Part shown: in pieces, positions 1-57,584 of the stretch
How positions within the stretch are numbered: position 1 is the stretch's first letter
How the letters are laid out: the number at the start of each line of letters is the position of its first letter
Source of the DNA: an uncultured bacterium
GTDB lineage: Bacteria > Muiribacteriota > Ozemobacteria > Ozemobacterales > Ozemobacteraceae
DNA: 64,000 bases
Direction: 5' to 3'
Assembly: GCA_964596185.1 (NCBI GenBank)
Contig: CAZQUE010000001.1
Span: 135,460 to 199,459 of the forward strand
Notes under the pieces: generated by a model
The model's input: only the letters and a program-made list of their open reading frames with translations
Database searches by the model: none
What the model was told of the DNA's origin: nothing
Program-made: the position numbers and the translations under genes

Positions 1-1247
1 CCCGGCTATATCTCAAAAATGGGGCTAATGAAGATTCGGTTCGCATCTATGAGAAAATCCTGCGACTTGAGCCTGAAAATGCCCTGATCATGGTGGAGCT
101 TGCCAGTTGCCAGATCAAACTAGGGAACTTCGAAGAAGCAACATTTTTGCTTGAACGGGCTCAAGAAATCAAACCCGGGTTTTATGCCGTTTTTCTGACC
201 TTTTCACGTCTTTATGAGGCGCAGAAAGATACTGGCCGTCAGGTGAGTTTTCTAATGCTTGCCGCTAATGCCGCACCTGAAAAAACTGAAATCAGGCTGG
301 CGCTTGCCGATCTTTTGAAAAGGCATGGCGACGTAAATGGGGCAATTTCTCAATATCGTAGCTTGATCGAAGAGCATCCAAGACTCGAACCGGCTTTATT
401 CGCTGCAGGTATCTTGCTGATGAACCGAAATGAGCTTGCCGAGGCGATGATGTGCTTTCGGCGTATACTTAATTTTAATCCTGGTGCTTTTGATGCTCAT
501 TTTAACCTCGCCAACTGTCTTTTCCGCCAGAAAAAGTATCAGATGGCAATTACTCATTTCCGTTTTGCCAGCAGAAGTAAAAAAATGGTCGAACGCTCAC
601 TTTATCTTTCAGCACAATGTCATCTGCAGTTAGGTGATTACGACCGGGCGATCGTTGCCATGGAACAGCTGGTAAATCATGACGAAAACAATATTTCTTA
701 TCAGAAAAGTCTTGCAGAAATTTACTCGGCGGCCAAAGAGCACGATCTGGCTCGCGACACATGGCGTTTGCTGTCAAAGCTGGCTCCAGAACGCCCTGAA
801 TTCATGGTCAAATATGCTGAGTCCCTGGTGCGATTGAAGGATTTCGATCGGGCAGAAAAGGCTCTCGACAATCTCTTCCGAATGCATCCAGGGCACATCG
901 AGGGACATCGTATTCTTGGTGAAATCTATCTGTTAAGGGGCCAATACTCTGCAGCAATCGAAGAATTCAAGCGCACTCTGATGATCAATGAAAACTATGC
1001 CGCGGTTTATCTTGGCCTGGCAAAAGTTTTTGCTGAAACCGGTGAAATGGAAAAAGAATATCAGGCTCTTGAAAAGGCCTGTGAACTAGGTATCGAAGAA
1101 CCACAGATTTTGCTGAAACTTGGCCAGCTTGAAAATCGTTTGAATAAGCCGACCTCGCTCGACAGATTTCGAAGAATCACAGAAATTGCTCCAGATTCAG
1201 ACTGTGCTCTTGAAGCCGAATATTATCTAAGGCACCAGGCCGCCTGA
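1..1247 (+). CDS. TPR-repeat protein, 5' end outside window
   Basis: The reading frame is open from position 3 through the annotated ATG at 90 and already carries TPR-like sequence (YLKNGANEDSVRIYEKILRLEPENA), so the gene starts upstream of the window. The whole ORF is made of repeated 34-aa TPR-like units rich in A, L, Y and N with W/LG/Y/A/F/A/P positions. Stop at 1247. Confidence 0.6.
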   Translation, partial: RLYLKNGANEDSVRIYEKILRLEPENALIMVELASCQIKLGNFEEATFLLERAQEIKPGFYAVFLTFSRLYEAQKDTGRQVSFLMLAANAAPEKTEIRLALADLLKRHGDVNGAISQYRSLIEEHPRLEPALFAAGILLMNRNELAEAMMCFRRILNFNPGAFDAHFNLANCLFRQKKYQMAITHFRFASRSKKMVERSLYLSAQCHLQLGDYDRAIVAMEQLVNHDENNISYQKSLAEIYSAAKEHDLARDTWRLLSKLAPERPEFMVKYAESLVRLKDFDRAEKALDNLFRMHPGHIEGHRILGEIYLLRGQYSAAIEEFKRTLMINENYAAVYLGLAKVFAETGEMEKEYQALEKACELGIEEPQILLKLGQLENRLNKPTSLDRFRRITEIAPDSDCALEAEYYLRHQAA

Positions 1248-1248
1248 T

Positions 1249-1977
1249 TCAATTCAAAGCTATCATTGCCGCGATTCCAGTCAGCTGGATTGCGGCAAAA
1301 ATTCTTTCAGGCCAATTTTTTTCTGGGAAAATTGCCGCTATCAATGCCGCTGCACCGACGAAAATTGCCGGGGCAAATGCAAATCTGGGTGCCATGGCGA
1401 ATAAAAACAGGAAACTCAAGCCTGCCCAGGCCGGCAGAGTGGCAAATTTAGTCCGAAAAGTTGCCAGCGCGGCGATGGCAAATGCGATTAATGGCGCAAC
1501 TTTCACTGGTAAAGACAGAAACGGGCAGCCATGCAGCGGAAAATTGAAGAGGATGAAAATCATCGCCGGCCACACATAAGGCCCAGGCTCAAGAACTTCA
1601 CGGCGAATAAATATGACCGTGGCAACGAACCAGATCACGGCCTTGCTTGCCAAAGCGATAAAAGCCAGCGAGAGACCGGCCTGACGAAAGCTTGCGGCAA
1701 GGATTATGGCGATTGAAGCTTCTACCACAGGGTACTGCCAGGAAATCGGCGCCTGGCAGTAGCGGCATTTTCCCCTTAGCATTAGCCAGCTCAAAACCGG
1801 CAGCAAATCACCGGCATGAAGTCGATGATTGCATTTTGGGCATGCAGAGGGTGGAAAAATAACCGAGGTTCGGCTCGACATTCGCAGAATGACTACGTTA
1901 CAGAAACTGCCCAGGAGACTGCCAAAAACAAGGAAAAAGATGGTTAACAGATTTTGAAGTAACTCTTGCGCTGGCAT
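1249..1977 (-). CDS. pilD: Type IV prepilin peptidase (A24 family, PilD-like)
   Basis: ATG start at 1977. The N-terminal zinc-binding tetracysteine motif (CPKCNHRL...CRYCQAPIS) is followed by a multi-pass membrane domain, which is the typical PilD/A24 architecture. It sits next to the pilin gene. Confidence 0.75.
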   Translation of the reverse strand: MPAQELLQNLLTIFFLVFGSLLGSFCNVVILRMSSRTSVIFPPSACPKCNHRLHAGDLLPVLSWLMLRGKCRYCQAPISWQYPVVEASIAIILAASFRQAGLSLAFIALASKAVIWFVATVIFIRREVLEPGPYVWPAMIFILFNFPLHGCPFLSLPVKVAPLIAFAIAALATFRTKFATLPAWAGLSFLFLFAMAPRFAFAPAIFVGAAALIAAIFPEKNWPERIFAAIQLTGIAAMIALN

Positions 1978-2041
1978 AATTTTCTTTCTATTTGAGGTTA
2001 AAACAGAATAATCGATTTAACCCATGAAGGCAAAAAAAAAG

Positions 2042-2072
2042 AGCGACTGAAACCAGTCGCTCAATTTTGTGA
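2042..2072 (-). terminator. Rho-independent terminator after the pilin gene
   Basis: A hairpin gagcgactg-aaac-cagtcgctc (2051-2072) is preceded on the plus strand by a 9-nt A-run (2042-2050). Read on the minus strand this is a hairpin followed by a T-run, immediately downstream of the pilin stop at 2083. Confidence 0.5.
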
Positions 2073-2082
2073 CTAAGAAAAC

Positions 2083-2427
2083 TTAGCTGTCGTTGCTTTC
2101 AATGGTTCCATGGTTAGAACATTCGATGAGACCATTGTCATCAAGGCCGGTGCCTGAAATGACACAACTCTGCGCTGCTGGCGTAATGGGAGCCTTGAGA
2201 TACTTACCGCTGACGAGTTTACTCATAACGAGTGTGCTCATCATGTCGGTGTGATCCATGTTGTACATTTCAACTGCACCAAGGACAACTCTCATGTTTG
2301 CGTAGCAGGCTTTTTCACGGGCCTGTTCACGAGCCTTTCGGAAGTTAGGAATCGCGATGGCGGCCAGAATACCAATAATAGCGATAACGATCATAAGTTC
2401 AATCAACGTGAAGCCTCTGCGTTTCAT
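2083..2427 (-). CDS. pilA: Type IVa pilin (prepilin with class III signal peptide)
   Basis: MKRRG|FTLIELMIVIAIIGILAAIAIP: a short basic leader, then Gly-Phe(+1), Glu(+5) and a hydrophobic alpha1 helix. ATG start with an AAGGAG SD 8 nt upstream. Total length 114 aa. Confidence 0.85.
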   Translation of the reverse strand: MKRRGFTLIELMIVIAIIGILAAIAIPNFRKAREQAREKACYANMRVVLGAVEMYNMDHTDMMSTLVMSKLVSGKYLKAPITPAAQSCVISGTGLDDNGLIECSNHGTIESNDS

Positions 2428-2471
2428 AAAAACTCCTTTCTTGAAAAAATTACGGTACTACCGTCAACTTA

Positions 2472-2500
2472 ATACTAACTAGAATGATGGGTTTTGTCAA
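2472..2500 (-). promoter_or_regulatory. Candidate sigma70-type promoter for the pilin gene
   Basis: On the minus strand: TTGACA (2495-2500), a 17-nt spacer, then TAGTAT (2472-2477). This lies ~45 nt upstream of the pilin ATG. No sigma54 TGGCAC-N5-TTGC element is visible. Confidence 0.35.
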
Positions 2501-2609
2501 TCACCCCCGGTAGCCCGAAAAAGTTCGTTAATTGTTAGGGTTTTCTACATTATTGTCTGCAACCCTGTTTGACAATTTTTTTCCTTTTCTATATTCTTTA
2601 CCAATCCAA

Positions 2610-4832
2610 ATGGTCGAAAGGCTTTTCCCCTTGAAAAAAGTTCTGGGAGCAACTTTATTAATTCTTGCTCTGGTTTCCCTTACTTTTTTTTTCTCAGATT
2701 TTTTTTATGGCCATTATTCGGGCTCGGAGTACAGAACTTTAGACCCTGATTCGTTATTTTTTTTGCGAATATTTGAAAAAACCATGGCTCAAGGTAATGT
2801 CCCTGCCTATGATAGCTATGGATCATTTCCCGACAGATTCAATTTTCAATACCCGCCATTTCACATGTTCATTTTGCAAAAAACTGCAAACTTTTTGAGT
2901 TTGATCTGGCCTGGCCAAGACCCTCGCTACCTTGTGGGGTGGCTCCCTCCTTTTTTTGGATGGGTTTTGGCTATGATCCTGGTGAGCTTCGTCTGGGCAA
3001 AGACCCGCAATGCTGTTTTGACTTTACTGGTCAGCTTTGCCTGTGTTCCGGGCATTATCTCGACGATAATTTATCAGTTTCAAAGAATCGATTACCATTT
3101 TCTCAACAATTTTTTCATCTGGGTTTGGATCATTTTTGCGGCGTTATACTGTGATGGCAGAAAGCAGTGGCATTTGATCGCAGGTGTCGTTGCTGCGCTT
3201 CTGTTTCAAATGACCTGGGGTGGTACACCCTTGTTTTTTTTCATTGTAACCGTTTATTTTGTGGTTCTGCTTTTTTTCAGATCCGGAATCTTATCTGATT
3301 TTGGCTTCTATTGTTCTTCTTCAATGGTTGTTTCTTCTTTGACCATTTTGCTTTTCCTGGTCATTTCAGGAGTTAAAACATTCAATCTCGGGGGATTGAG
3401 TCTATTGCAGCCCCTGCTGATTCTTTCTGGCGGGATATTCGTGGTTATCGCACTATGGATGCCTTCATTATCCGGGAAAGGTAGATTTGCTCTGCTTGCT
3501 CCGATATTGATTTTTGCCGCATTGCTTTTTCCTTATTTTTTCGAGAAGGTAAAAGATGGTTTTACCTTTGTATCAAATTCTGATTTAAACCTTCAGTCTA
3601 TTAACGAGTTAAGGGCGGGAATCAATTTTTCTCAAATTCTGGTGTCATTTTCAGGAATTATTTCTGCTGTATCGAAGCTGAGACTAGTCTTTTTTCTGTT
3701 TCCATTTCTGATTTTCTTCAATCCATCCGGTCTTTTTGATGGCGGTGGCAAACTTTTGAAGGGCTTTAGCGCGATTTTTCTTCTTATGGGGTGTTTTTCC
3801 GAAAGATATTTTCGTTGGCTGGGCATTTTAATCGGATTTTGGAATGGCGTGGCCCTGTTTTTTCTTTTTTGCGTAATAAGTTCGACTGTAAAGGCGGATG
3901 ATTCAACGGTCTTCAGGAAAAATTTCAAATATTTGTTTTTTCTGCCATTTTTGCTTCTGCACTTTTTCTGGAGTTATCCAATGTTTTATAAACCCAGTTC
4001 TGCTTCTGGAGCTGCGCTGATGTCTGCGATGAATTGGATTCGCGACAATACGCCACCTACCAGCGGTTTCTTAGACAATAAGACTCCGGAATACGGTATT
4101 TACAACTACTGGCATTCAGGTAATGTCGTCAATTACTACGCTCAGCGCCCGACAATCGTAAACAATACCATGGTTGGGTATGGAAAAATGGCCGAAATTT
4201 TTTGCGCTGCAGATGAAGAATCTGCCTATTCGATTTGCGAGAAATATGGGATCAGATATTTTTATATCAACTCTTTTTATGATTTTTCTGATCGATTGGT
4301 CCGGTTTATGAGGGCATACTACCTTAGGCCGGGCGTGACCGGAACCGAATATCTATTCTTTCCTGATTATATTGATAATCCTGAAGATAGCTTTAAGTTC
4401 GACAAGACATTTCACTACTGGCTAAGAAATAAACTGGCAATTGAACCTTCCGGGATGTTCTCTGAAGCTGCTTCCAGACTAAGAATCGTATATTGTGATG
4501 AATATCATAGTGCCAACATGCTGCCCACCTATCTACTTTATGAACTGGTGCGCGGAGCAGTTGTTAAAGGGAATGCCGACGCGGGTTCAGAGGTGGAGGT
4601 TGCTTTGGACTGTCGTTTTGCTGATGTTGAAACCAGATACAGAAGAAAAGTCAAAGTTTCCGATCAGGGCGATTTTTCTATCCGACTTCCCTATGCAAAT
4701 TCATGGAAAAATGGCAATGTTGAAACAGGCAGTGCTTATCAAATCTCAGTCTTTATTGACGGAAAGATGAGTGAGCGCAGCTTTTCTCTTTCAGAAAATG
4801 ATGTGGCAGCTGGTAACGAGATAAAATTGTGA
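2610..4832 (+). CDS. Polytopic membrane protein, putative STT3/AglB/PglB-like oligosaccharyltransferase family (paralog A)
   Basis: There are 12-13 predicted TM helices followed by a soluble C-terminal domain. Motifs resemble the STT3 superfamily: DPDSLFFLR in loop 1 (DxD-like), SFPDRFNFQYPP (compare WFDDRAWYP), and YNYWHSGNVVNYYAQRPTIVNNTMVGYGKM, which aligns to [24 protein letters not shown]...VGKAM. I set the start at ATG 2610 by alignment with the N-terminus of paralog B; the six-frame track began at TTG 2532. Confidence 0.5.
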   Translation: MVERLFPLKKVLGATLLILALVSLTFFFSDFFYGHYSGSEYRTLDPDSLFFLRIFEKTMAQGNVPAYDSYGSFPDRFNFQYPPFHMFILQKTANFLSLIWPGQDPRYLVGWLPPFFGWVLAMILVSFVWAKTRNAVLTLLVSFACVPGIISTIIYQFQRIDYHFLNNFFIWVWIIFAALYCDGRKQWHLIAGVVAALLFQMTWGGTPLFFFIVTVYFVVLLFFRSGILSDFGFYCSSSMVVSSLTILLFLVISGVKTFNLGGLSLLQPLLILSGGIFVVIALWMPSLSGKGRFALLAPILIFAALLFPYFFEKVKDGFTFVSNSDLNLQSINELRAGINFSQILVSFSGIISAVSKLRLVFFLFPFLIFFNPSGLFDGGGKLLKGFSAIFLLMGCFSERYFRWLGILIGFWNGVALFFLFCVISSTVKADDSTVFRKNFKYLFFLPFLLLHFFWSYPMFYKPSSASGAALMSAMNWIRDNTPPTSGFLDNKTPEYGIYNYWHSGNVVNYYAQRPTIVNNTMVGYGKMAEIFCAADEESAYSICEKYGIRYFYINSFYDFSDRLVRFMRAYYLRPGVTGTEYLFFPDYIDNPEDSFKFDKTFHYWLRNKLAIEPSGMFSEAASRLRIVYCDEYHSANMLPTYLLYELVRGAVVKGNADAGSEVEVALDCRFADVETRYRRKVKVSDQGDFSIRLPYANSWKNGNVETGSAYQISVFIDGKMSERSFSLSENDVAAGNEIKL

Positions 4833-4849
4833 AAAAGAGGACTTGAACC

Positions 4850-7093
4850 TTGTTGCGATTGCTTCCAATAGACAAAAAGACCGGGATTTTTCTGGTTTCG
4901 TTGCTTTTGATTCTGGCTTGCTCCTTAACGATGTTCTATTCAGACTACCTTTTCCAAACTTCTGAAAGATCCCAGTATGTGACCAGAGATTCCGATTCGA
5001 TCTTTTTCATGCGTTTGTATGAAAAAGCAATCAATACAGGAAAAATCTCGCAAAAGGACTATTACGGCTCTTTTCCTGATGAACTGGAAATCAAATACCC
5101 ACCGTTTCATTTAAGATTTTTGCTTGAAATCAGCTATTTTCTGATGATGTTTTTGCCGGAAAAATGGTGGGGGATTGATTTTCTTATCGGTTGGATCCCG
5201 CCTTTCTTTGGTTGGATGATCGGCCTGCTGATGATTTTTTATACCTGGAAGAAAACCGGAAATAAAGGACTTACGTTAATGGTTGCCTTTGCCTGCATTC
5301 CCGGCAGAATCGCGGCGATGAGTTCGTTGTTTCTCAAGATAGATTATGATTTTCTGATAAATCTTTTTATCTGGGTCTGGGTTGTCGGTGCAGCAATGTA
5401 TTGTCCAGACAAAAGCCGCTTCTGGCAGTTTGCCGGAACAATTTCATTATTATTGTTTATTTTTACCTGGGGCGGGGTTCCACTATTTTTCTCGGTTGTT
5501 TTCATTTATTCTTTGTTTTTGCAGATTGTTAACCGACAGCTTGGCCAACAATTCGCCGAATATGCCAAATCAACATTTTTTCTCTCTTGCCTGGTGGCGT
5601 TGGTCTACGTTTTATACTCCGGAGAAAAGACCCTGAATATTGGTTATCTTGGTCTCTTCCAACCATTGTTTGGCCTGGCGGTTGCAGTTCTTCTGGTGGT
5701 TTTTGAAAAACTCTTCAGAAAAGAACCTGGAGCAGAGAGCAAAATTGCGCATTACCTTGCAATTGCCACTTTGCCATTGATTGCAATACTGGCAGCATTT
5801 TTCTTCCGTGACCAGCTTAGCAGTGGTTTTTCATTTCTGTTTAACAAAGATCCGCACATGCTCTCGGTGGGTGAACTGCAGCCAATAATCAGCTTTTCAG
5901 AATTGATCAAGGATAGAGATATTTTAATTTCTGCTCTTTATCGATTAAGTCTGATGTTTTTCTTCTTTCCATTGATTTTTTTGGCCAATCCAGGCCGTAT
6001 TTTTTCCGGAGAAGGCCGTTTCGTTCGGGACTTTGCCATTCTGTTTCTGCTCATGGGCTGCTATTCTGTCAGATATTTTCGTTGGGTTGGCCTGGTAATA
6101 GGGTTTTTGAACGGTTTGATCCTGTTCGAGCTGTTTTTAATTTTTTCCCGCCGTTTCTGCAATTCAGAAAGAAAATATGGCCGGCTGTTGCTGATCGTTC
6201 CTCTGATGGTTTTACATTTCGTTTTGAGCTATCCCGTATTTTCAAGAACTGCAGGGATTAAAAAAGCTAATTTGCAGGCTTTGACCTGGATAAATGAAAA
6301 TACTCCACCCACCAGCGGTTACTATGACGAGAAAAGGCCTGAATATTCGATTTTCGCGGTCTGGAGCTACGGGAACCAGATAAATTATTATGCAAGAAGG
6401 CCGACGATTGTAAACAATACCATGGCCGGTTTTGGAAAAATGTCCAGATTGATTACTGCTGAAGATGAAACTCAGGCCTATGAATTATGCAAAAAATACG
6501 GAGTCAGATACTTTTTTATCGATGCCAAATATAGATTGACAGATGAATTGGTTAAATTCATGCAGGTCTATGCGAAAAAAGTAGATGAAAAAGATGTCGT
6601 TTACCGTTTTATCGATGATTCTCAAGAAAGCACGACCCGTTCCAATGGTTTAAAGGAGTCTTTTTATTATTGGTTGGGCAGCAAGCTGGCAATGGAAAAA
6701 AGCTTCAATTTTCCTCAGGCCGCATCGAGATTGCGAATCGTTTATTGCTATGAATACTATTCCGAAAAAATTCCTCCGGAGCATTTGATTTTTCAGCTTG
6801 TTGAAGGCGCAAAGCTCACTGGTAAAGCTGATGCAGGAACCAAGGTCCGTATCGAATTGGATTGTCAGTTTTTCGCGATCAAGAGAAAATTTGTTCAGGA
6901 AACTATTGTGGGTGAAGATGGAAGATTTGAGGCTACTGTTCCTTACTCAAATGGATATAAAAATGGATTTGTGTTTACCGGGCCGAACTATCTGATAACC
7001 AGAATGGTTGAGGGTAATACCGAGAGCAAAGAAGTTCAGGTTTCTGAAAAAGCGGTTATTGATGGTGACCGTATATTGCTGTCGGAACTTTGA
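4850..7093 (+). CDS. Polytopic membrane protein, putative STT3-like oligosaccharyltransferase family (paralog B)
   Basis: This is a tandem paralog of the previous gene, roughly 35-40% identical by eye. Shared blocks include YGSFPD..YPPFH, GW(L/I)PPFFGW, NTPPTSG, YYA(Q/R)RPTIVNNTM.G.GKM and AASRLRIVYC.EY. The WWDYG-equivalent reads AVWSYGN. TTG start at 4850 with an AAGAGGA SD, 17 nt after the stop of paralog A. Confidence 0.5.
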   Translation: MLRLLPIDKKTGIFLVSLLLILACSLTMFYSDYLFQTSERSQYVTRDSDSIFFMRLYEKAINTGKISQKDYYGSFPDELEIKYPPFHLRFLLEISYFLMMFLPEKWWGIDFLIGWIPPFFGWMIGLLMIFYTWKKTGNKGLTLMVAFACIPGRIAAMSSLFLKIDYDFLINLFIWVWVVGAAMYCPDKSRFWQFAGTISLLLFIFTWGGVPLFFSVVFIYSLFLQIVNRQLGQQFAEYAKSTFFLSCLVALVYVLYSGEKTLNIGYLGLFQPLFGLAVAVLLVVFEKLFRKEPGAESKIAHYLAIATLPLIAILAAFFFRDQLSSGFSFLFNKDPHMLSVGELQPIISFSELIKDRDILISALYRLSLMFFFFPLIFLANPGRIFSGEGRFVRDFAILFLLMGCYSVRYFRWVGLVIGFLNGLILFELFLIFSRRFCNSERKYGRLLLIVPLMVLHFVLSYPVFSRTAGIKKANLQALTWINENTPPTSGYYDEKRPEYSIFAVWSYGNQINYYARRPTIVNNTMAGFGKMSRLITAEDETQAYELCKKYGVRYFFIDAKYRLTDELVKFMQVYAKKVDEKDVVYRFIDDSQESTTRSNGLKESFYYWLGSKLAMEKSFNFPQAASRLRIVYCYEYYSEKIPPEHLIFQLVEGAKLTGKADAGTKVRIELDCQFFAIKRKFVQETIVGEDGRFEATVPYSNGYKNGFVFTGPNYLITRMVEGNTESKEVQVSEKAVIDGDRILLSEL

Positions 7094-7106
7094 ATAATTG
7101 ATTGAT

Positions 7107-9779
7107 TCAGGGCGTCGCTTGAAGATATTTGGTGTAATATTCAAAATCCATAATCAGAAAGCGCTGCAGATATTCCATCGTCAGCATGATCGAGGCATTT
7201 TTGTTAACTCGATCAATGTCATAGTTCTTTAGCGGTTCAAAAATGGGCTTTCGGCCATCGAGCTTCATGCTCATGACCTTCATGCTGTTGAGATCTTTGT
7301 AATACCAATAATAGTTATCGTTTTCCTGCAGGGCGAGATGATTGAAAGAGGCAAGAAAAATCTTGCGCGGTGCAGGATTTGCGGTTAGCAGATCCATGCC
7401 TTGAATCACTACCGGAACTTTGCTTTTGACCCCACAAAGATTCAGTGCAGTGGGCAAAATATCAATATGTGAGCCTGGAGTTGGGTTTATTTTTAAGCCG
7501 GTGCTGTTTGGTCTGATAATAATAAGAGGAACATTCGTCAGATGTGGGTCGCAGTTCCAGCCGTGCCCAAATTGGCCATTTTCGCCAAGGCTGGTGACGT
7601 GGTCGGAAGTAATCATTATATAAGTGTTTTCGCTAAGCCTGTTTGCATCAAGGGCCTCAACAATTCTGAAAATCTGTGAGTCGAGATAGCTGATGCAGTC
7701 TTTGAATCTGCCGACGGCATCATTGGGTGATTTGCCGAAAACGGTTGGGTGGTCGGAGATCTGATTGAATGGAGCATGAGGAAAAGCGGCCCGGTAATAG
7801 ATGAAGAAAGGTTGATCAGAACTGCTTTTCTCTTTAAGAAAATCTGAAATTCGATCGACGACGAAATGTTCCTTTACGCCCCATATCCAGCCATCATCCT
7901 TGGTCATGCCGGGCATGGTGGTCGCATCATACATTCTGTCAGCGCCTCGTGGGCGATAAAAATTGGCAATTCCTGTATTGCCGGTATAGATCGAGAAAAA
8001 GAGCGAGCAATCAAAACCGGATGCTTTCAAAACTTCGATTAAAGTATTACAAATAAAAACCGGTTTGCTTCTGAAAATATGGAATGTTGATGGGATGATC
8101 CCGGAAAAAATTGAAAATTCTGCATTTGAAGATTCGGCAAAAGATGAAAAATAAAATGGAAAAATCTCGATTCGATCTTTTAATGATTCGAGCTTCGGGG
8201 TAGTTGCATCCTCATTGCCGAAAAGCTGCAAATATCTGGTTCCGGTTGATTCGAGGGTAATCAGAATCAGATTGGCAGGTTTTTGCACATTTTGTTGTCG
8301 TTGCGATTCAACAAACTTTTTCGTTGTTTCCTCGATATTGAAGCCTGCCTGATCAAGTCTTTTCTTGAGAGCTTCAGGGGTTGGGCGTTTTGAAAAATAG
8401 TTTTTGAAATAAGGAACCGAGCCGATGAGGTTGTTGACCGGGTCTGACATGCCGGCAACCGGCGAGTTCAACATGCGCGAGCCGATGTTTGAAATAGCCG
8501 AAAAGCCAAGAATGATAATCAGAAAAAGTTTGGTTCTGCTGGTCGATTTGGCAATGATTCGACCGGATACGAAGCTGGCACTTAACCAGAGAACCGTTGG
8601 CACAATGATAAGGCCGACCAATGTTCCGATACTGACTACTTTGACGGCAGTATTCAAAAACATGCTTAAAGTGCTGAGACTCAAGACCCAATCAATTGCA
8701 TGAAAGTCTACACTCTGGCCCATGTTGAAGAACACAAAACCGTCGACGACATAGAAAATAAAAAGCAGGAACGCCAGCGAATAGAAAATCGCCTTTTCTG
8801 CTTTCTTGCTGAAAAGGCCGAAAAATACTGCAATGATACTGATGATGGTCAGATGAGAAATGGCCATGAAGGCATAACCGAATGAGAAAAGCAAAAGCCA
8901 GAAGTTGAAAACGCAGATCCCCATTGGAATTCGGTTAACTGAAAAGCTGAAAACAATGCTGAAAAAAAGCAGAAAAAACCATGAATGATTTGGTGAACCG
9001 CTTTCATGATGAGATTCGGCAAATTTGATCATTCGAAAACCCAGAAGCCAACATAAAAAGAACAATACTAAAACTGAGATCAGCGATGAACTGTAGATAA
9101 TAGCAAAGTTCAACAGGTAAGCAACTGATGAAACGAAGGTTAGCCCGAAAAAGTAATGCAGGTATCGTGGTGATCGACCTTTGGCGCAGTTAGTCGAGAT
9201 CAGGGTTGTGAACAAAACCGCAAAAGCAAAAATCAATTGGTAATTACTTAAATAATAGGTGAATTGAAAAAAAGGCAGGATACATAACAGATCGATAATC
9301 CGCTCATATCCAGCTTTTCGGGTGATGTAAAAAACCAGGCCATAAAACAGCAGACTCCAGACAATGAACGGCGACTGAAAAAACATGTCCATTATCAAAA
9401 CTGCACTTAAATCTTCATAAGTGGCCTGTGCTTCAAAAATTCTAAAAAGAGCCGGCTTACTGCCGCCCAGCTTGAGATTTGTCAGGGCAAAAATTATAAA
9501 TGCCGCAGGGTAAACCAGGGCGCTCTTGAATTGAAAATCTTTGGGAAAGCGCTTTATCGAGCGAAAGTAGGCGATAAATAAAACTACATATACAGCAATG
9601 TACAGCCAGATGCCGAACTCGGGAAAAGAAAGATCCGGCCTGACCAGTTCGCCAAGGTTTTTGGGAACGTTTAAGAAGATGGCGAAAACACGTGCGGCAA
9701 GAATAAGAACAAATGCCGTATAAACTGGGGCCTTTAGACGCTCTGCGGCACTTTTCCAGAAAAGGATGAAAGAATTCAT
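7107..9779 (-). CDS. Membrane-anchored sulfatase / alkaline-phosphatase-superfamily transferase (LtaS/EptA/PptA-like)
   Basis: A ~520-aa multi-TM N-terminal region is followed by a C-terminal sulfatase-type domain (ITLESTGTRYLQLFG..., ITSDHVTSLGENGQFGHGWN). I moved the start to ATG 9779 (MNSFILFW). The longer track ORF would overlap pilT by ~100 nt. Confidence 0.7.
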   Translation of the reverse strand: MNSFILFWKSAAERLKAPVYTAFVLILAARVFAIFLNVPKNLGELVRPDLSFPEFGIWLYIAVYVVLFIAYFRSIKRFPKDFQFKSALVYPAAFIIFALTNLKLGGSKPALFRIFEAQATYEDLSAVLIMDMFFQSPFIVWSLLFYGLVFYITRKAGYERIIDLLCILPFFQFTYYLSNYQLIFAFAVLFTTLISTNCAKGRSPRYLHYFFGLTFVSSVAYLLNFAIIYSSSLISVLVLFFLCWLLGFRMIKFAESHHESGSPNHSWFFLLFFSIVFSFSVNRIPMGICVFNFWLLLFSFGYAFMAISHLTIISIIAVFFGLFSKKAEKAIFYSLAFLLFIFYVVDGFVFFNMGQSVDFHAIDWVLSLSTLSMFLNTAVKVVSIGTLVGLIIVPTVLWLSASFVSGRIIAKSTSRTKLFLIIILGFSAISNIGSRMLNSPVAGMSDPVNNLIGSVPYFKNYFSKRPTPEALKKRLDQAGFNIEETTKKFVESQRQQNVQKPANLILITLESTGTRYLQLFGNEDATTPKLESLKDRIEIFPFYFSSFAESSNAEFSIFSGIIPSTFHIFRSKPVFICNTLIEVLKASGFDCSLFFSIYTGNTGIANFYRPRGADRMYDATTMPGMTKDDGWIWGVKEHFVVDRISDFLKEKSSSDQPFFIYYRAAFPHAPFNQISDHPTVFGKSPNDAVGRFKDCISYLDSQIFRIVEALDANRLSENTYIMITSDHVTSLGENGQFGHGWNCDPHLTNVPLIIIRPNSTGLKINPTPGSHIDILPTALNLCGVKSKVPVVIQGMDLLTANPAPRKIFLASFNHLALQENDNYYWYYKDLNSMKVMSMKLDGRKPIFEPLKNYDIDRVNKNASIMLTMEYLQRFLIMDFEYYTKYLQATP

Positions 9780-9790
9780 TTCGATGCGCC

Positions 9791-10852
9791 TTAAGCGCTC
9801 TTGAGCATTCTTTCGAGTTCCTTCGGATGCATGGTGTGTGACATTGCTTCTTCGAGAGTGATGTCGCCACGCAAATATAGGTCGCGCAGGCACATTTCGA
9901 AGGTCATCATGCCCTCGTCATGGCTGGTCTGCATGACCGTGTACAGTCCGGAAATCTTCTGTTCGCGAATACAGTTGGCGACGGCCGGGTTTCCGATGAG
10001 AATTTCGTTACAGACGACTCGGCCTTTGCCGCTGGCCATCGGAATGAGCTGCTGGGCAACGACTGCTCTGAGAACGAATGAAAGCTGTGAGCGGATCTGG
10101 CTTTGCTGGTGCGGCGGGAAAATATCGATGATACGGTTGATTGTCTGGGCAGCATCGGTAGTATGCAGAGTGCCGAAAACAAGGTGGCCGGTTTCCGCCA
10201 TGGTACAGGCAGCTGAAACAGTCTCGAGGTCGCGCATTTCGCCGACGAGGATAACGTCTGGATCTTCGCGAAGCACGCGTCTGAGAGCTTCACCGAAAGA
10301 GTTGGTGTCGATATGCAGTTCACGCTGGTTGACCACAGATTTTTTGTGGTAATGCAGGTATTCGATCGGATCTTCGATGGTCATGATGTGATTTCGTCTG
10401 GTTTCGTTGACGATATTGATCAGGCAGGCCAGAGAAGTTGATTTACCAGAACCGGTCGGACCGGTAAAGAGAACCAGCCCTTTGCGCAATTTGGTGAAGT
10501 CACGGAGTTTTTCGGGCAGTCGAAGCTCTTCGAGCGAAGGAATGCGGGTTGGAATAATTCGAAATGCTGCGCCGATACAGCCTCTTTGTTTATAAACGTT
10601 AACGCGGAATCGGCCAAAGCCATGAACTGAATAAGACAGGTCAAGCTCTTTGCATTCTTCGAATTCTTTCTGCTGTTCAGCAGTCAGCATGTTGTAGATC
10701 AACGATCTTGTATCCATAGGAGTGAGAACATCAAGATCGGTTTGAATCAATTCTCCATCAACGCGGATAACCGGAGGGGTTCCCACGGTAATATGAAGAT
10801 CTGATGCACCGTTTTCAATTACCAGGTTTAGCAGATCGTTAAGAACAAACAT
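9791..10852 (-). CDS. pilT: Twitching-motility ATPase PilT
   Basis: The N-terminus MFVLNDLLNLVIENGASDLHI..., Walker A GPTGSGKST and the 353-aa length are PilT hallmarks. Confidence 0.9.
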   Translation of the reverse strand: MFVLNDLLNLVIENGASDLHITVGTPPVIRVDGELIQTDLDVLTPMDTRSLIYNMLTAEQQKEFEECKELDLSYSVHGFGRFRVNVYKQRGCIGAAFRIIPTRIPSLEELRLPEKLRDFTKLRKGLVLFTGPTGSGKSTSLACLINIVNETRRNHIMTIEDPIEYLHYHKKSVVNQRELHIDTNSFGEALRRVLREDPDVILVGEMRDLETVSAACTMAETGHLVFGTLHTTDAAQTINRIIDIFPPHQQSQIRSQLSFVLRAVVAQQLIPMASGKGRVVCNEILIGNPAVANCIREQKISGLYTVMQTSHDEGMMTFEMCLRDLYLRGDITLEEAMSHTMHPKELERMLKSA

Positions 10853-10885
10853 TTTCCCGCACTCCTTATTTTTTTATGTGTATGA

Positions 10886-12718
10886 TTAGTGCTCGCCCAT
10901 GGTGACGCGGACAACTTCTTCAAGAGAGGTCATACCGGTGAGGGCTTTTCTCAGAGCTGATTCGCGCAGTGACAACATGCCTTCTTCAATGGCCTGTCTT
11001 CTGATGTCATCGGTTGAGCCGCCGTTGAGAATGATATCTCTAAGGCGTTCGGACATCAACATAACTTCGTAAACGCCGACGCGGCCTTTTGATCCTGAGT
11101 TGTTGCAGGTTTCGCAGCCTTTGCCCTTGTAGAACATCATATTCTTTTCATTGATGTGGGGCAGGTCGAGACGTCTGAGTAATTCTGGGGTGATGCCGAA
11201 CTGGCTGATTTGCTCAGCTCTTGGTTTGATTTCAAATTTGCAGTCTTTACAGATTTTTCTGACCAGACGTTGTGCCTGAACGATAACGACCGAGGTCGTA
11301 ACCATGAAAGGTTCGATACCCATGTTAACGATACGGCCGATGGTGCCGGGCGCATCGTTGGTATGCAGGGTTGAAAGCACAAGGTGGCCGGTCATCGACG
11401 CTTTGATCGCGATTTCTGCGGTTTCAAAGTCACGAATCTCACCGACCATGATTACATCCGGATCCTGGCGCAGGAAGGAGCGCAGGGCCGCGGCGAAAGT
11501 CAGGCCGATTTCAGGTTTACACTGCACCTGGTTAACCCCATGCAGCATGTATTCAACCGGATCTTCAGCGGTCATGACGTTGGTGTCGACGGCGTTGAGA
11601 GATGTCAGCGCCGAATAAAGCGTTGTGGTTTTACCTGATCCGGTTGGACCGGTAACGAGAATGATGCCGTATGGCGAGGCAATACCGCCCTTGAAGCGTT
11701 CAAGCGTTTTTGGTTCGAACCCGAGATCTTCAAGGTTAACCTTGAGCGAGCTCTGGTCGAGAATTCGCATAACGATTTTTTCGCCCCAGATAACCGGCAG
11801 AACCGATACGCGCAAGTCGATCATGCGGTTGGCCACTTTGATCTTGATACGTCCATCCTGTGGCAGACGCTTTTCAGCGATATTGAGTGACGACATGATT
11901 TTGATACGCGAAGTGATAGCGGCGGTAGCCTTTTTGGGCGGGCTCATGGCGGTGAACATCATGCCGTCCTGGCGATAACGCACGCGCAATTCTTTTTCGA
12001 ACGGTTCGATATGAATGTCGGAAACCCCGTTTTGAACAGCCTGAGAAATAACCAGGTTGCAAAGGCGGATGATCGGCGCATCGTTTTCGCCGAGTTCGCC
12101 GAGCTGGTCGAGATCTTCGTCGTCGGTGTGTCCGATGTCTTCAAGGTCGTCCATCAGTTTGTCCTGCTGGGCAACGGCACCATAGGCGTCCTGTAGTGCT
12201 TTACTGATGTCAGTATGGGTCGCGACGACCGGTTTGACCATCAAACCGCTCATCAGCTGAATGTCGTCGATGGCAATGATGTTAAGTGGGTCGACCATGG
12301 CCACGGTAAGCTTGTTTCCGACCTTGTTGATCGGAATGAGCATGTGACGCTTGGCGATATGTTCGGGTACCAGTTTCGCAATAACCGGATCAATCAGGTA
12401 GTTTGACAGGTCAATGAACGGTATACGAAGCTGCTTTGACAGGATCTGAACGATATCCTGTTCGGTGACAAGATGCATTTCAACCAGCACCGCGCCAAGT
12501 CGTTTGCCGCTCTTTTTCTGTAGCGCCAGAGCCTGTTGCAGTTGCTCTTCGTTGATCAGACCTTCATGAATAAGTGCATCCCCAAGACGCATTTTCTTGG
12601 GAATAGTAGACGAAGAAGCTCCTGGCTTGGGTGGCCCCGGTGGCGCAGCGGCCGGGCCTGGGGGCATTGCGCCGCCATCCGGTCCCTGGCCGGGCTGTGC
12701 AGGAATAGATTGATTCAT
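10886..12718 (-). CDS. pilB: Type IV pilus assembly ATPase PilB (GspE family)
   Basis: An Ala/Pro-rich N-terminus is followed by a GSPII_E N-domain, Walker A GPTGSGKTTT and a C-terminal CxxC...CxxC zinc finger. There is a strong AAGGAAGG SD. Confidence 0.9.
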   Translation of the reverse strand: MNQSIPAQPGQGPDGGAMPPGPAAAPPGPPKPGASSSTIPKKMRLGDALIHEGLINEEQLQQALALQKKSGKRLGAVLVEMHLVTEQDIVQILSKQLRIPFIDLSNYLIDPVIAKLVPEHIAKRHMLIPINKVGNKLTVAMVDPLNIIAIDDIQLMSGLMVKPVVATHTDISKALQDAYGAVAQQDKLMDDLEDIGHTDDEDLDQLGELGENDAPIIRLCNLVISQAVQNGVSDIHIEPFEKELRVRYRQDGMMFTAMSPPKKATAAITSRIKIMSSLNIAEKRLPQDGRIKIKVANRMIDLRVSVLPVIWGEKIVMRILDQSSLKVNLEDLGFEPKTLERFKGGIASPYGIILVTGPTGSGKTTTLYSALTSLNAVDTNVMTAEDPVEYMLHGVNQVQCKPEIGLTFAAALRSFLRQDPDVIMVGEIRDFETAEIAIKASMTGHLVLSTLHTNDAPGTIGRIVNMGIEPFMVTTSVVIVQAQRLVRKICKDCKFEIKPRAEQISQFGITPELLRRLDLPHINEKNMMFYKGKGCETCNNSGSKGRVGVYEVMLMSERLRDIILNGGSTDDIRRQAIEEGMLSLRESALRKALTGMTSLEEVVRVTMGEH

Positions 12719-14128: not shown

Positions 14129-15139
14129 TTAGAACTGTTTTGATGCAGAGATTCTATGCGCGTCTCCCAGAGTTTCGTCGGCGTAGGAATAATCAAAACG
14201 CCAGGTATCGAGCTTGAAGCTGGCACCAAGAGTCAGGTCGCCGTCGTGGGCACCGAGTCTCAGAGCGGCATAGTCCTGTACCCAGTATTCTGCGCCGGCA
14301 TAAAGCTTGGCATCCATGTCTTCAACCTTGTTGATGTCGGCGGCGATTGTAAGCTTGTCATTGGGCTTATGGGCAACACCAACCTGAAGGGTGGTGGGAA
14401 CGCTATCAGAATGTCCTGAAGCTGTATCCCATTCGAGAGATTCACCAATGTCGCGAACAGACAGACCCAGAGTCGTCTTTTCGTTGGCTTCATAGAGGAA
14501 GCCGAGATCGAGGCCGAAACTGTCTGCCGAGTTGGTAAACAGATCCTGGCTCAGATATTTGAGGTTGATACCACCATACCAGCGATCAGCCAGTTTTTTG
14601 GCGTATGAACCGAAAGTTGCTTTTTCAGAATCATCGAAGTAGCTGAAAATGTAAACTGATTTACCGGGAGAATAAGTCCCGTCAGGATTGGTAGCCGGAA
14701 GATCCGTTCCTGCTGGAATCGCTGTTCCATCAAGAGTTGCAGGGGTGTTGCCTGTGCCATAAGTAGTGGCAAGCCGTGTTTCAGGAATACCATCAACGCC
14801 GAATCTGATGTGAGACAGGGCGACAACGCCATTGTCTTTGCCATCTTTGCCTTTAAGCGGATGCGCGTAGTTGAAGAAGTTGTATTCGCGATCCATGCTC
14901 AGGTCGGCGTGCATGAAAGAGCCTTCAGCCTTTTTCAGTTTGGCGAGTCCGGCCGGATTCCAAAACGCGGCGGTAGAGTCGTCGGCCAGTGCAGTGAATG
15001 CACTGCCCATGCCCAGAGCCCGGGCACCGACACCCATTTTCAGATATGCTCCCGCCTGGCCTGCGGATTCAGCAAAGGCAGTGCTCATGGTGCCTACGCT
15101 AAGAGCCACGAGGAAGAGAGTCTTTAAAACCTTTTTCAT
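14129..15139 (-). CDS. FadL/PorV-family outer-membrane beta-barrel protein
   Basis: Signal peptide MKKVLKTLFLVALSVGTMSTAFA. The FadL-type N-terminal hatch motif is present (GVGARALGMGSAFTALADDSTAAFWNPAGLAKL). The body has alternating-hydrophobic beta-strand character and ends in C-terminal ...ASKQF. I trimmed the start to ATG 15139. Confidence 0.55.
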   Translation of the reverse strand: MKKVLKTLFLVALSVGTMSTAFAESAGQAGAYLKMGVGARALGMGSAFTALADDSTAAFWNPAGLAKLKKAEGSFMHADLSMDREYNFFNYAHPLKGKDGKDNGVVALSHIRFGVDGIPETRLATTYGTGNTPATLDGTAIPAGTDLPATNPDGTYSPGKSVYIFSYFDDSEKATFGSYAKKLADRWYGGINLKYLSQDLFTNSADSFGLDLGFLYEANEKTTLGLSVRDIGESLEWDTASGHSDSVPTTLQVGVAHKPNDKLTIAADINKVEDMDAKLYAGAEYWVQDYAALRLGAHDGDLTLGASFKLDTWRFDYSYADETLGDAHRISASKQF

Positions 15140-15244
15140 ATTGTTTCCCCTTACGAGTCGATAGAACTGGTTATCTATCATTTCGGCAGCTGACTTGATT
15201 TTCTGAACGATAATTTAACTATTTTTGAAAAAAAGTTTTTTCAA

Positions 15245-48300: not shown

Positions 48301-48798
48301 TTCGCCCGGTTCACTGACTTCTGCTTTGCCGTCTTCACCACCGACAGAAAAGCCTTCCCAGGAGTAAAGCTGGCGGATTGCCAGTTCTATCTGATTTTTG
48401 GGGGCGATCAATACTTCAAGTTTGCATTGAGTAAGAAAGGCGATCATATCGGTGGCCATGATGTCGAAAGGATCGGCCATGGCAACGGTGAGGCGGTTTC
48501 CTTCCTTTTTCATCGGAACCATTTTGTATTGTTTGGCCTGATATTCAGGGATAAGCGAAAGAATCTTGGCGTCGACCTTGATGTTGGTCAGATCGATGAC
48601 CGATACCCCAAGAAATTCAGCCCAGAGGTCGAGAATTTGCTTCTCAGACATGAAACCAAGTCTGACAATGATATTTTCAAGGCGTTCGAGCGTCTGGGCC
48701 TGGATGTTTTTCGCCTTTTCAAGCTGATCTTCAGACAACAGACCCTTTTGCAGCATCAGGCTTTCAACTGTTTGTTTGGTTCCTTGAATGTTGTTCAT
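45310..48798 (-). CDS. GspE/PilB-family secretion ATPase with long C-terminal repeat-containing extension (1162 aa)
   Basis: The N-terminal ~570 aa have a GSPII_E N-domain, Walker A GPTGAGKTTT, and a CPSCK...CKECNQ zinc finger. A ~590-aa extension follows, containing three ~85-aa repeats (FKPWQFNE.../FKQWQFIEE.../FKAWQFNEQ...). GGAGGA SD. Confidence 0.8.
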   Translation of the reverse strand: MNNIQGTKQTVESLMLQKGLLSEDQLEKAKNIQAQTLERLENIIVRLGFMSEKQILDLWAEFLGVSVIDLTNIKVDAKILSLIPEYQAKQYKMVPMKKEGNRLTVAMADPFDIMATDMIAFLTQCKLEVLIAPKNQIELAIRQLYSWEGFSVGGEDGKAEVSEPGEAGVEVVRKTSEQGAVVQFLNAIFKQAILKRASDIHVEPREDILLVRFRVDGILHDAMTGPKSLLAPLISRIKILSHLDIAERRLPQDGRLKVRMQDKEIDFRVSTVPSLLGEKAVLRLLQREAKYDLDNLGFFDDDLSRLKAALDEPYGLILVTGPTGAGKTTTLFGMLKYFNSTEINIFTIENPVEYRINGITQVQINDKIGLDFASGLRSALRQDPDIILVGEVRDLETAEIAFRASLTGHKVLSTLHTNNAPASINRLINMGVPAYLVTAAVRAVVAQKLLHRICPSCKTEYKPSHSIIQRLNLSPGKLIGNKFYHGAGCKECNQTGTFGRIGVYETMVMTASLKDIIMEGGTEMAIKRIARLEGMRTLREMAIERAIVGESTLEEVVYVTPSDEEEKRISLPGVFTGNPSMVVPVAMPQSAAMGSTMPQSEPIRAQRSAPVIDPNDPVIKTIIASLEKEYLFFSDEKLAERMHLPVLQIRELLQMQGLTRTSEGFKNFFGAAPEEMSETDIVDIIHLIQEKGGYLPDFIFANDEIAATWSAIAVKALLEKIKNRLQKPEELPEIFNEKLLVNAGLEQVWLWSGQSRFKLIEMVLPGQFKPWQFNEIENWLENNDKNYCAREALEWLMSEKLGCSRGDLPAMLNRHIFKDNGLGKLLELFDDSCFKLVNAVFPNVFKQWQFIEEEPLIWFQEDRFDTAQKATIWLIEERLGIPIEEIPKRISIREFHMNGLSKLLDLFNQNLYQVIENAYPQKFKAWQFNEQSDLWKAPDALETARQATTWLIHDRLHIDEAKAAQHISRRHFLNNGLGFMLGTLFNHSHFLALENAIEELKTNEIFQKALFNYSQEIRDINVKWEALAEKIALNHFGKARFKVTLPNLKVAPIVPENERIYINAANQIEYVPQIVIPKLNAYSDFSDFSHWVPYCDRLTYWVLGDDRSTGYVEPTHPKVKLVFVDALTGGLRSKGLLDVVEKVQQLVNTHNRLLDHKAPAGI

Positions 48799-53095: not shown

Positions 53096-53129
53096 CTCTA
53101 TTCACCTCTTCTTCTGAAAACCTCGCTGC

Positions 53130-54758: not shown

Positions 54759-54759
54759 A

Positions 54760-57564: not shown

Positions 57565-57584
57565 TGGGCTATCCTCCAGAAATT

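Follow-up and report, generated by a model that had tools for sequence, protein, structure and literature searches.

Tandem AglB/STT3-like oligosaccharyltransferase homologs with Asp-less WWDYG slots, next to a type IV pilin gene in an uncultured bacterium, probably of the Riflebacteria

The stretch of DNA considered here (the window, 64,000 nucleotides [nt] of contig CAZQUE010000001.1 from an uncultured member of the Ozemobacteraceae) carries near its start two tandem genes, paralogs A and B, whose products are homologs of the AglB/STT3 oligosaccharyltransferases (OSTs). In the slot where this enzyme class carries the motif WWDYG, the Asp is replaced in both copies, by His in A and by Ser in B. 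Both genes lie on the plus strand, with the start codon of B 18 nt past the stop codon of A; both open reading frames (ORFs) are intact and full length, and the products are 41% identical over their full length. Coordinates of the genes follow the ORF list, and residues of A are counted from its first TTG.

2532-4832, plus strand: paralog A, AglB/STT3-like OST homolog, 766 amino acids (aa)
4850-7093, plus strand: paralog B, AglB/STT3-like OST homolog, 747 aa
4107-4121, plus strand: WWDYG slot of A, Y526-W527-H528-S529-G530, with His in place of the pocket Asp
6359-6373, plus strand: WWDYG slot of B, V504-W505-S506-Y507-G508, with Ser in place of the pocket Asp

The true start of A is probably the ATG at 2610 (M27). 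Homologs begin around residue 27-30, and the first 26 codons of the listed ORF (2532-2609) are probably untranslated. A promoter-like site on the plus strand (2569-2597) falls inside this 5' extension, back to back with one on the minus strand (2500-2472) that faces a divergent pilin gene; the number of promoter-like sites in this intergenic region is no higher than chance.

Both products are true members of the STT3/AglB family, which bears out the initial annotation of the pair as OST-like. Pfam AglB_core-like (PF22627) and AglB_L1 (PF18079) match A and B above gathering score, and the best NCBIfam model for each is TIGR04154, “archaeo_STT3” (6.3e-31 for A and 1.2e-45 for B), with scores of 107.5 and 156.2 bits where the cutoff is 450, so that membership in the curated family is not reached. 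At E<=1, neither protein has a Pfam match to STT3 (PF02516) or to a Wzy_C or O-antigen ligase-like domain. With an AlphaFold2 model of A (predicted TM-score 0.72), the top Foldseek match is AglB-L of Archaeoglobus fulgidus (7e9s; E=4.5e-23, query TM-score [TMq] 0.67), followed by STT3 (1e-14 to 1e-10), then DPY19, then PglB (~1e-7). A multi-pass GT-C membrane domain and a C-terminal mixed alpha/beta core are present, as read from the model and Foldseek for A and from Pfam for both; the fold evidence is a model of A, with B covered through Pfam and its identity to A. A profile of the transmembrane domain alone had zero matches among PDB sequences at E<=10, and homology in that domain therefore rests on TIGR04154, on MAFFT alignment with archaeal relatives and on Foldseek. 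A database protein 100% identical to B (P0001) is named by JGI “asparagine N-glycosylation enzyme membrane subunit Stt3.” A search of the window for further OST copies found none.

The slot can be read directly from the DNA. Nucleotides 4101-4124 (tac aac tac tgg cat tca ggt aat) translate to YNYWHSGN, residues 524-531 of A, and AVWSYGN is residues 503-509 of B (nt 6356-6376). The coordinates first reported for the A string were exact, while those for B (6358-6375) were 1-2 nt off and out of frame, at the same site. The WWDYG motif itself is found in neither copy (YWHSG in A, VWSYG in B), and of its residues the second Trp and the Gly alone are kept. Translation and alignment both confirm what the initial annotation had said of the two copies: the motif is degenerate, Asp has become His in A and Ser in B, and the flanks (PEY..., GN and RP..NN) are conserved. 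In a phmmer search of A against PDB sequences, PEYGIYNYWHSGNVVNYYAQRP pairs with PDYAVLSWWDYGNWILYVAKKA of A. fulgidus AglB-S, in its C-terminal domain (3vu0, E=1.6e-9; 3vgp, E=5.7e-8). With a 12-sequence family profile, the E values for 3vu0 and 3vgp improve to 8.5e-18 and 2.2e-16, and the slot columns are set on the WWDYG of AglB-L (3wai) and of eukaryotic STT3 (8i9p, 2lgz); MAFFT alignment with canonical archaeal WWDYGN proteins gives the same assignment. All three methods place the slot on the WWDYG of AglB/STT3, which rules out a chance or misaligned motif. The substituted residues are themselves stable: the His of A is kept in its orthologs at loci L001 and L021 (YWHSGN) and in the 50%-identical protein P0004 (YWHIGN), and the VWSYGN of B is kept in L001 and in P0002 (82% identity). 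Candidate strings resembling the DK/MI motif are D587-RLVR-FM in A, in a predicted helix (587-597) where the model is of low confidence, and D565-ELVK-FM in B; according to the authors of PMC3703281, assignment of the DK/MI motif requires a structure.

The role of the lost Asp can be read from the literature on characterized enzymes. In PglB, the W-W-D triad hydrogen-bonds the hydroxyl of the +2 Thr (PMC3527161; PMC3703281), and the pocket for the +2 Ser/Thr of the sequon is formed by this triad together with the DK/MI helix (PMC3703281, PMC3527161, PMC8342417). Catalysis and metal binding belong to two DxD motifs plus the Glu of TIXE, and an Arg and a His sit at the lipid phosphate (PMC8342417); in A. 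fulgidus AglB, the residues are Asp47 (metal), Asp161-His-His163, Thr357-Ile-Ala-Glu360 and Arg426 at the phosphate site (PMC8342417). The single changes D459V, W457S, W458R/C, Y460N/C and G461D each inactivate Campylobacter jejuni PglB on sequon substrates (PMC3527161), and slot mutations in PglB abolish glycosylation via acceptor binding. Thus, the description of the missing Asp as catalytically relevant was at most loosely right: it is a residue of the +2 Ser/Thr pocket, and catalysis resides in the DxD and TIXE motifs (PMC3527161, PMC3703281, PMC8342417). Reviews describe AglB as having WWDXG (PMC11407970).

The corresponding catalytic residues of A and B are assigned as follows.

2742-2753, plus strand: first DxD of A, D71-P-D73-S74
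3090-3098, plus strand: second DxD of A, D187-Y-H189
3597-3608, plus strand: TIXE/SVSE-type motif of A in external loop 5 (EL5), S356-I-N-E359
3804-3806, plus strand: putative lipid-phosphate-binding Arg of A, R425
4988-4999, plus strand: first DxD of B, D47-S-D49-S50
5342-5350, plus strand: second DxD of B, D165-Y-D167
5864-5875, plus strand: TIXE/SVSE-type motif of B, S339-V-G-E342
residue R408 of B, in VRYFRW (residues 407-412): putative phosphate-site Arg

The first DxD, the motif of external loop 1 (EL1), supplies the metal-binding and carboxamide-activating Asp in this enzyme class. D71, D73 and S74 of A are invariant in a 13-sequence alignment of the transmembrane domain (numbered there D45, D47 and S48), DPDS is found in all of the ORFs from the 16 loci, and in the MAFFT alignment D73 pairs with a conserved Asp of canonical archaeal AglB-like proteins. 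The second DxD of A has the D-x-H form seen in A. fulgidus AglB (Asp161-His-His163), the archaeal relatives having DHH. E359 and R425 are likewise invariant in the family, aligning with the (T/S)(I/V)xE of archaeal AglB and with the conserved Arg of QxRF in archaeal AglB-like proteins, respectively; A also carries a DGGK-like string, DGGGK. The predicted catalytic set, comprising both DxD motifs, the TIXE-type Glu and the phosphate-site Arg, is intact in both copies.

The two genes are also under purifying selection. Against the orthologous tandem pair of L001 (~80% aa identity), dN/dS is 0.094 for A, 0.083 for B and 0.044 for the core domain of B, values that are rough though clearly below 1. 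Over the 51 columns with conservation of 90% or more in Asp-bearing members of the family, A differs at 4 and B at 5, as compared to a mean of 2.1 and a maximum of 12 deviations among the Asp-bearing members themselves. The Asp column alone is 100% conserved in the Asp-bearing group (50/50, tree set) and yet changed in all 6 members of the clade that holds A and B. The replacement is targeted, in an enzyme that is otherwise well preserved, and is not decay; general decay into pseudogenes is ruled out by dN/dS of 0.08-0.09 and by the retention of 46-47 of the 51 conserved columns.

A and B belong to a discrete bacterial family, whose members we defined by a score above 350 bits to the family profile, a slot of the form xW.xGN and a PEY...RP..NN frame. 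In word-indexed and exhaustive searches, about 50 cluster representatives score above 350 bits, followed by a drop to about 200 for archaeal and other relatives; A and B, both within the profile's own alignment, score 1000.7 and 1066.7 bits. Genome loci carry the labels Candidatus Riflebacteria, Rifleibacteriota or Ozemobacter, and two carry that of Avigastranaerophilus. These two (L010 and L015, from Candidatus Avigastranaerophilus metagenome-assembled genomes [MAGs]) have the pilin-OST-PilB arrangement and a pilin N-terminus of the Riflebacteria type, so that either the MAGs are mis-binned or mislabelled or the family would reach beyond Riflebacteria. The slot consensus of the family is (F/Y)WD(E/x)GN. 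WWDxG occurs in 0/54 members, Asp is kept in 42/54, and the second Trp and Gly are kept in 53/54. Degeneracy of the slot is thus not special to A and B: as aligned here, the whole family lacks WWDxG.

The loss of Asp, by contrast with the family-wide changes, is confined to some lineages and recurrent. In a neighbor-joining tree (a simple one, without support values), A and its orthologs, P0004 (YWHIGN), P0003 (PWGKGN), and B and its orthologs form one Asp-less clade, nested within a clade that has the tandem gene duplication. Overall, Asp was lost at least 5 times in the family, mostly in extra paralogs, with independent losses in P0005 (FWSHGN), in P0034 (also FWSHGN), in P0014 and the first gene of L020 (FWGEGN), in L025 (TWGEGN; outside the tree) and in P0021/L006/L027 (YRNxSN). 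The MAG that contains L001 also has an Asp-retaining tandem pair, L002 (YWDEGN and FWDRGN), and the Asp-less L006 shares one contig with the Asp-bearing L009; these Asp-bearing copies in the same genomes argue that loss of Asp is recurrent and falls mainly in extra copies. A distinct paralog type with the slot YRN(D/E)SN (L006, 9881-12088; L027 and L035, 7881-10076; P0021) has also lost the near-invariant Trp and Gly, retains DPDS, DYD and xITE, and has no adjacent pilin; it shares its contig with an Asp-bearing copy (L009). In literature searches on Riflebacteria OSTs, on bacterial AglB-like enzymes and on WWDYG variants with pilins, neither this family nor Asp-less variants were found described. 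What is undescribed so far is the bacterial lineage, the linkage to pilins and the recurrent remodelling of the pocket, in an enzyme class that is itself well known.

Beyond the family, canonical slots are again in the minority. Among 103 cluster representatives of more distant AglB-like proteins, only 23 have WWDxG, and 55 carry Asp at the third slot position, with Ser there in a further 18, Gly in 12, Glu in 7 and Thr in 4; the second Trp and Gly are kept in 99-101 of them. One protein of Candidatus Omnitrophica has the slot PWEVGH. A Methanothrix protein (ABK15319.1/WP_011696698.1; P0072/P0169), annotated [quoted passage not shown] reads SWSYGN and thus shows the same Asp-to-Ser change as B. 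Several AglB paralogs are present per Methanothrix genome (PMC9128505), and searches of the literature turned up no characterized Asp-less archaeal AglB paralog.

The genes around the pair point to type IV pili.

2083-2427, minus strand: short type IV pilin or pseudopilin, 114 aa with a GFTLIEL N-terminus, divergent from A; candidate acceptor
7107-9893, minus strand: membrane protein of 928 aa with a large multi-pass N-terminal region and a domain of the sulfatase/LtaS/EptA type (PF00884, 1.9e-40), convergent with B
9791-10852, minus strand: PilT-like type IV pilus ATPase, from the ORF translation
10886-12718, minus strand: PilB-like type IV pilus ATPase, from the ORF translation

The window pilin matches Pfam N_methyl and the NCBIfam models for ComGC, PilA and GspG-like proteins; its gene has the promoter-like site noted above (2500-2472) and a terminator-like hairpin at 2062-2041. 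A search for other pilin-like ORFs in the window found none besides this one. Across the family, 13 of the 16 genome loci have a PilB-like homolog within 5-9 kb of the OST, and in each Asp-bearing locus for which sequence upstream is available, the gene immediately upstream, on the opposite strand, encodes a type IV pilin. These family pilins next to Asp-bearing genes are about 190 aa long with the invariant N-terminus GFTLMEIMVVIIVIAVLASVAGPMIGSITDQGR; those of loci L003-L016 and L024-L043 have an identical 33-residue N-terminus. The window retains the divergent pilin-OST pair, but its pilin is of a different, short ComGC/GspG-like type.

The usual locus also has AglJ/AglG-like glycosyltransferase genes within a pilus cluster. 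Around the Asp-bearing gene of L017, the order is secretin, PilO, PilM/N, pilin (minus), OST (plus), followed by two glycosyltransferase family 2 (GT2) genes of 330 and 242 aa, DUF2304, a methyltransferase, a B12/radical-SAM protein, PilC and PilB. L020 and L045 have similar pilus clusters with GT2/GT2/DUF2304, and T2SSE and T2SSF are called in L017 and L020. The 242-aa GT2 resembles AglJ (2.5e-29), PpgS (2.6e-29), Dol-P hexose transferase and ArnC, and the 330-aa GT2 resembles MftF, EpsD and AglG, in each case below the curated cutoffs. The module looks like a compact archaeal-style route, in which a lipid-phosphate sugar would be made, elongated and passed to AglB. In the window, the LtaS/EptA-type enzyme, PilT and PilB stand downstream of the OST pair in place of the GT2 genes. 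The LtaS-like protein has only weak matches to LtaS and to phosphoethanolamine transferases, and its gene adjoins an OST pair elsewhere in L001 only (88% aa identity). It may be another enzyme that modifies the envelope or the pilin, and might transfer phospho-forms or phosphoglycerol (compare Neisseria PptA).

L001 is a near-identical locus, with PilB and PilT 99.7% identical to those of the window. Over window positions 1-12718, divergence from the closest relatives is highest at the OSTs: OST-A is 80% and OST-B 82% identical in aa sequence as compared to 99.7% for PilT/PilB, and dS is 1.3-1.5 for the OSTs versus 0.37-0.39 for PilT/PilB. Between these fall the other genes compared with L001/L021, namely a TPR protein (94%), a prepilin-peptidase-like protein (92%), the pilin (96%) and the LtaS-like protein (88%). 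The peak at the OSTs suggests an older or recombining allelic cassette, as in surface-glycosylation islands. The prepilin-peptidase-like gene (1249-1977, minus strand) encodes a 242-aa membrane protein with the prepilin peptidase N-terminal domain only (A24_N_bact, 1.5e-31), with no Peptidase_A24 match at E<=0.001 and no NCBIfam match.

Archaeal AglB N-glycosylates type IV pilins (PMC11407970). In the family described here, the adjacency of pilin and OST genes argues for the pilin as acceptor, and given the genetic link between the family and type IV pili, the neighbouring pilin would be the most likely recipient of the glycan. The pilins beside Asp-less genes at L021, L025 and L045 have zero N-X-S/T sequons in their mature parts. 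The single sequon of the window pilin, N112-D-S114 in the C-terminal ESNDS, reads ESKES in the 96%-identical ortholog of L021. With no conserved N-X-S/T in this pilin, we infer that A and B would accept a site without the usual requirement for a +2 hydroxyl. In the ~190-aa pilins, a block NY-x-(K/R)KWKGPYMDS keeps its Asn in 11 of 12 aligned sequences and has a +2 Ser/Thr in 5 only; this Asn could be a glycosylation site outside the N-X-S/T rule or a structural residue.

Taken as a whole, A and B would be working enzymes kept by selection, in a branch of AglB/STT3 that is specific to Riflebacteria and was probably acquired from Euryarchaeota. The pocket has been remodelled in two steps, one family-wide, with the first Trp becoming Phe or Tyr and the Tyr becoming Glu or another residue, and one in the duplicated lineage, with the pocket Asp becoming His in A and Ser in B. 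The ancestral locus would have had a pilin divergent from the OST, followed by the AglG-like and AglJ/PpgS-like GT2 genes and DUF2304, inside a PilQ-PilMNO...PilC-PilB cluster; on the periplasmic face, the enzyme would move a short glycan built on polyprenyl phosphate onto the adjacent pilin and possibly onto other exported proteins. The window carries a second, derived locus, with its short ComGC-like pilin, A, B, the LtaS-like enzyme, PilT and PilB. The altered acceptor recognition proposed in the initial annotation remains the most economical reading, given an Asp that is invariant in the 50/50 Asp-bearing members of the tree set and changed in 6/6 of the A and B clade with nearly all other conserved columns kept. 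For the examples given there, an O-linked target or a particular non-canonical sequon, the evidence speaks neither in favour nor against. Homology, the states of the motifs, selection and synteny are observed; the activity, the donor, the role of the pilin as acceptor and the change of specificity are inferred. As a joint statement, that A and B are active, that they differ in recognition of the +2 position and that the pilin is their target may well hold, though we put it forward tentatively and would stop just short of calling it probable. A bolder form, which we regard as doubtful, is that A and B are the first STT3/AglB-family transferases free of the +2 Ser/Thr rule and modify the type IV pilin of a bacterium at an Asn outside any sequon or even at Ser/Thr, with His versus Ser setting two site specificities, and that the family is an archaeal-type (AglJ/AglG/AglB-like) N-glycosylation module captured by the pilus system.

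Several observations weigh against altered recognition with the pilin as target. Sequons are not enriched in the pilins: the mature parts of the 19 non-redundant pilins beside Asp-bearing genes contain 23 N-X-S/T as compared to 31 expected from composition, with at least 1 sequon in 15/19 as compared to 15.6 expected, and sequon content is therefore no independent support for the pilin as a target of N-glycosylation. The association of Asp loss with absence of sequons (15/4 versus 1/3; Fisher p ~0.07) is drawn from few, non-independent lineages and is suggestive at most. No GT2 gene that might supply a glycan donor is among the window ORFs scanned, and in the A lineage, P0003 and P0004 come from a third, non-pilus locus beside a PNP_UDP_1 gene. 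The structural and evolutionary measures have their own weak points, with the model of A poor around the slot (predicted local distance difference test [pLDDT] 46-67) and the OST dS, at 1.3-1.5, near saturation, hence the roughness of dN/dS. Finally, Asp-less slots are so frequent among AglB-like proteins that Ser or His may be compatible with ordinary sequon binding.

This last point is the core of a rival explanation, that A and B are ordinary N-X-S/T OSTs in which the His or Ser, the second Trp and a Lys/Arg of the DK-like helix still bind the +2 hydroxyl, so that the change of Asp would be near-neutral and the function general N-glycosylation of exported proteins rather than of pilin specifically. 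The near-invariant second Trp and Gly (53/54 in the family, 99-101/103 in distant relatives) fit this explanation, as do the Ser, Gly, Glu and Thr common at the Asp position, including that of the annotated OST of Methanothrix (ABK15319.1, SWSYGN), and the [DE]xx[KR]-like strings in A, B and the L002 pair (ELVK in B, RLVR in A); moreover, giant surface proteins with Ig domains, encoded in the window and described below, could serve as general targets. However, D459V alone inactivates C. jejuni PglB on sequon substrates (PMC3527161), the 50 Asp-bearing members show 100% conservation of the Asp, which is hence not freely variable, the pilins beside Asp-less copies lack sequons, and the literature searches offered no characterized Asp-less archaeal paralog as a precedent. 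We consider this explanation rather unlikely, if worth keeping in mind. A larger departure would be a change of chemistry or acceptor class, towards Ser/Thr, such as the C-terminal Ser of the short pilin, or towards a non-protein envelope acceptor, perhaps together with the LtaS-like enzyme. Pseudomonas TfpO/PilO O-glycosylates the C-terminal Ser of its pilin; both orthologs of the short pilin have Ser as their last residue (...ESNDS and ...ESKES), an LtaS/EptA-type membrane enzyme takes the place of the GT2 genes at this locus, and the fold search also returns the GT-C peptide transferases DPY19 and PMT. On the other hand, the DxD Asp and the TIXE Glu, by which known OSTs activate the carboxamide of Asn, are unchanged, AglB is clearly the nearest fold (E=4.5e-23 versus ~1e-10 for DPY19 and >1e-2 for PMT), and neither O-linking nor the use of lipid acceptors is known to us from any enzyme of the STT3 family, all of which makes such a change improbable.

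The initial annotation had also allowed for a non-catalytic role, and A and B could on that account be decaying duplicates or pseudo-enzymes, acting as scaffolds or as lectin-like partners of an Asp-bearing OST encoded elsewhere. They are indeed extra paralogs, in a closely related MAG the ancestral pilus locus (L002) still has a tandem pair with the Asp, and the OSTs are only ~80% identical in aa to those of L001 as compared to 99.7% for the flanking PilT/PilB. But with both frames full length and intact, with every catalytic and phosphate-site residue retained, with 4-5 of the 51 conserved columns deviating and with dN/dS at 0.08-0.09, a non-catalytic role is disfavoured, and we rate this explanation as very unlikely.

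Among characterized systems, A. fulgidus AglB (AglB-L, 3WAJ, 5GMY and 7E9S; C-terminal domains of AglB-S1/S2, 3VU0 and 3VGP) is the best match to A and B in sequence and fold. It has in common with them the multi-pass GT-C domain, the central core domain and the AglB_L1 beta domain, as well as the TIXE-type motif, the phosphate-site Arg and, for A, the D-x-H form of the second DxD and the DGGK-like string. It differs in having WWDYG where A and B have YWHSG and VWSYG; moreover, A and B have no canonical DK/MI motif assigned, are bacterial (Riflebacteria) and adjoin bacterial type IV pilus genes, and their transmembrane domain is not similar enough in sequence for the PDB chains to be picked up by HMMER. 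Campylobacter PglB (C. lari, 3RCE/5OGL; C. jejuni) is, like A and B, a single-subunit, periplasmic, bacterial OST of the STT3 family with a related fold (E ~1e-7, TMq 0.42-0.44), but it is much further from them than AglB, belongs to a general pgl locus not linked to pilin, and has a strict WWDYG and an MI motif, with single motif changes inactivating the enzyme (PMC3527161). Eukaryotic STT3 (yeast, human) shares superfamily, fold (E 1e-14 to 1e-10) and a WWDYG aligned with the slot (8i9p, 2lgz), but works in a multi-subunit complex with dolichol-PP-linked donors and has strict WWDYG and DK motifs. Within TIGR04154, the Methanothrix member with SWSYGN shares the Asp-to-Ser state of B; A and B, however, score 107 and 156 bits versus 450 and lack the archaeosortase context, and the Methanothrix protein is itself uncharacterized. 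TfpO/PilO of Pseudomonas, PglL/PglO of Neisseria and the GT-C pilin arabinosyltransferase TfpW are dedicated membrane transferases, encoded next to pilins, that modify type IV pilins with glycans from lipid-linked donors. Their likeness to A and B is one of functional analogy only, since they belong to unrelated families (Wzy_C-type O-OTases) and form an O-glycosidic linkage.

Other features of the window lie further downstream. Two giant ORFs on the minus strand, 15967-25749 (3260 aa) and 26696-40579 (4627 aa), encode proteins with C-terminal bacterial Ig-like domains and a weak Por_Secre_tail match, and come after genes for TPR proteins and a FadL/PorV-like outer-membrane protein (14129-15181); the products may be large adhesins of the cell surface and may serve as general targets of glycosylation. 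A second ATPase of the T2SSE/PilB type (45310-48798, minus strand; 1162 aa) extends for ~600 residues past the ATPase domain without annotation. Within a CheR/CheB/CheA-CheW cluster (52244-60206), a minus-strand gene at 54760-57564 encodes a fusion protein of 934 aa, in which 4Fe-4S and Fe-only-hydrogenase large-subunit domains are joined to HAMP and an MCP signalling domain, and which may be a redox- or H2-sensing chemoreceptor.

Bacterial N-glycosylation is known experimentally almost only from the PglB of Campylobacter-like and Desulfovibrio-like organisms, and WWDYG is regarded as the signature that enforces N-X-S/T. Given that most uncharacterized metagenomic AglB-like proteins lack a canonical WWDxG, caution is recommended for annotation based on this motif. 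If A and B are active, they would be natural OST variants with other acceptor rules, useful for glycoengineering, and would make it possible to test how sequon specificity is set by the +2 pocket. In any case, an AglB-type family of a candidate phylum that is hard-wired to pilin genes is a parallel to the AglB-dependent glycosylation of archaeal pilins, and it is a family that repeatedly swaps the pocket Asp while the catalytic centre stays under purifying selection.

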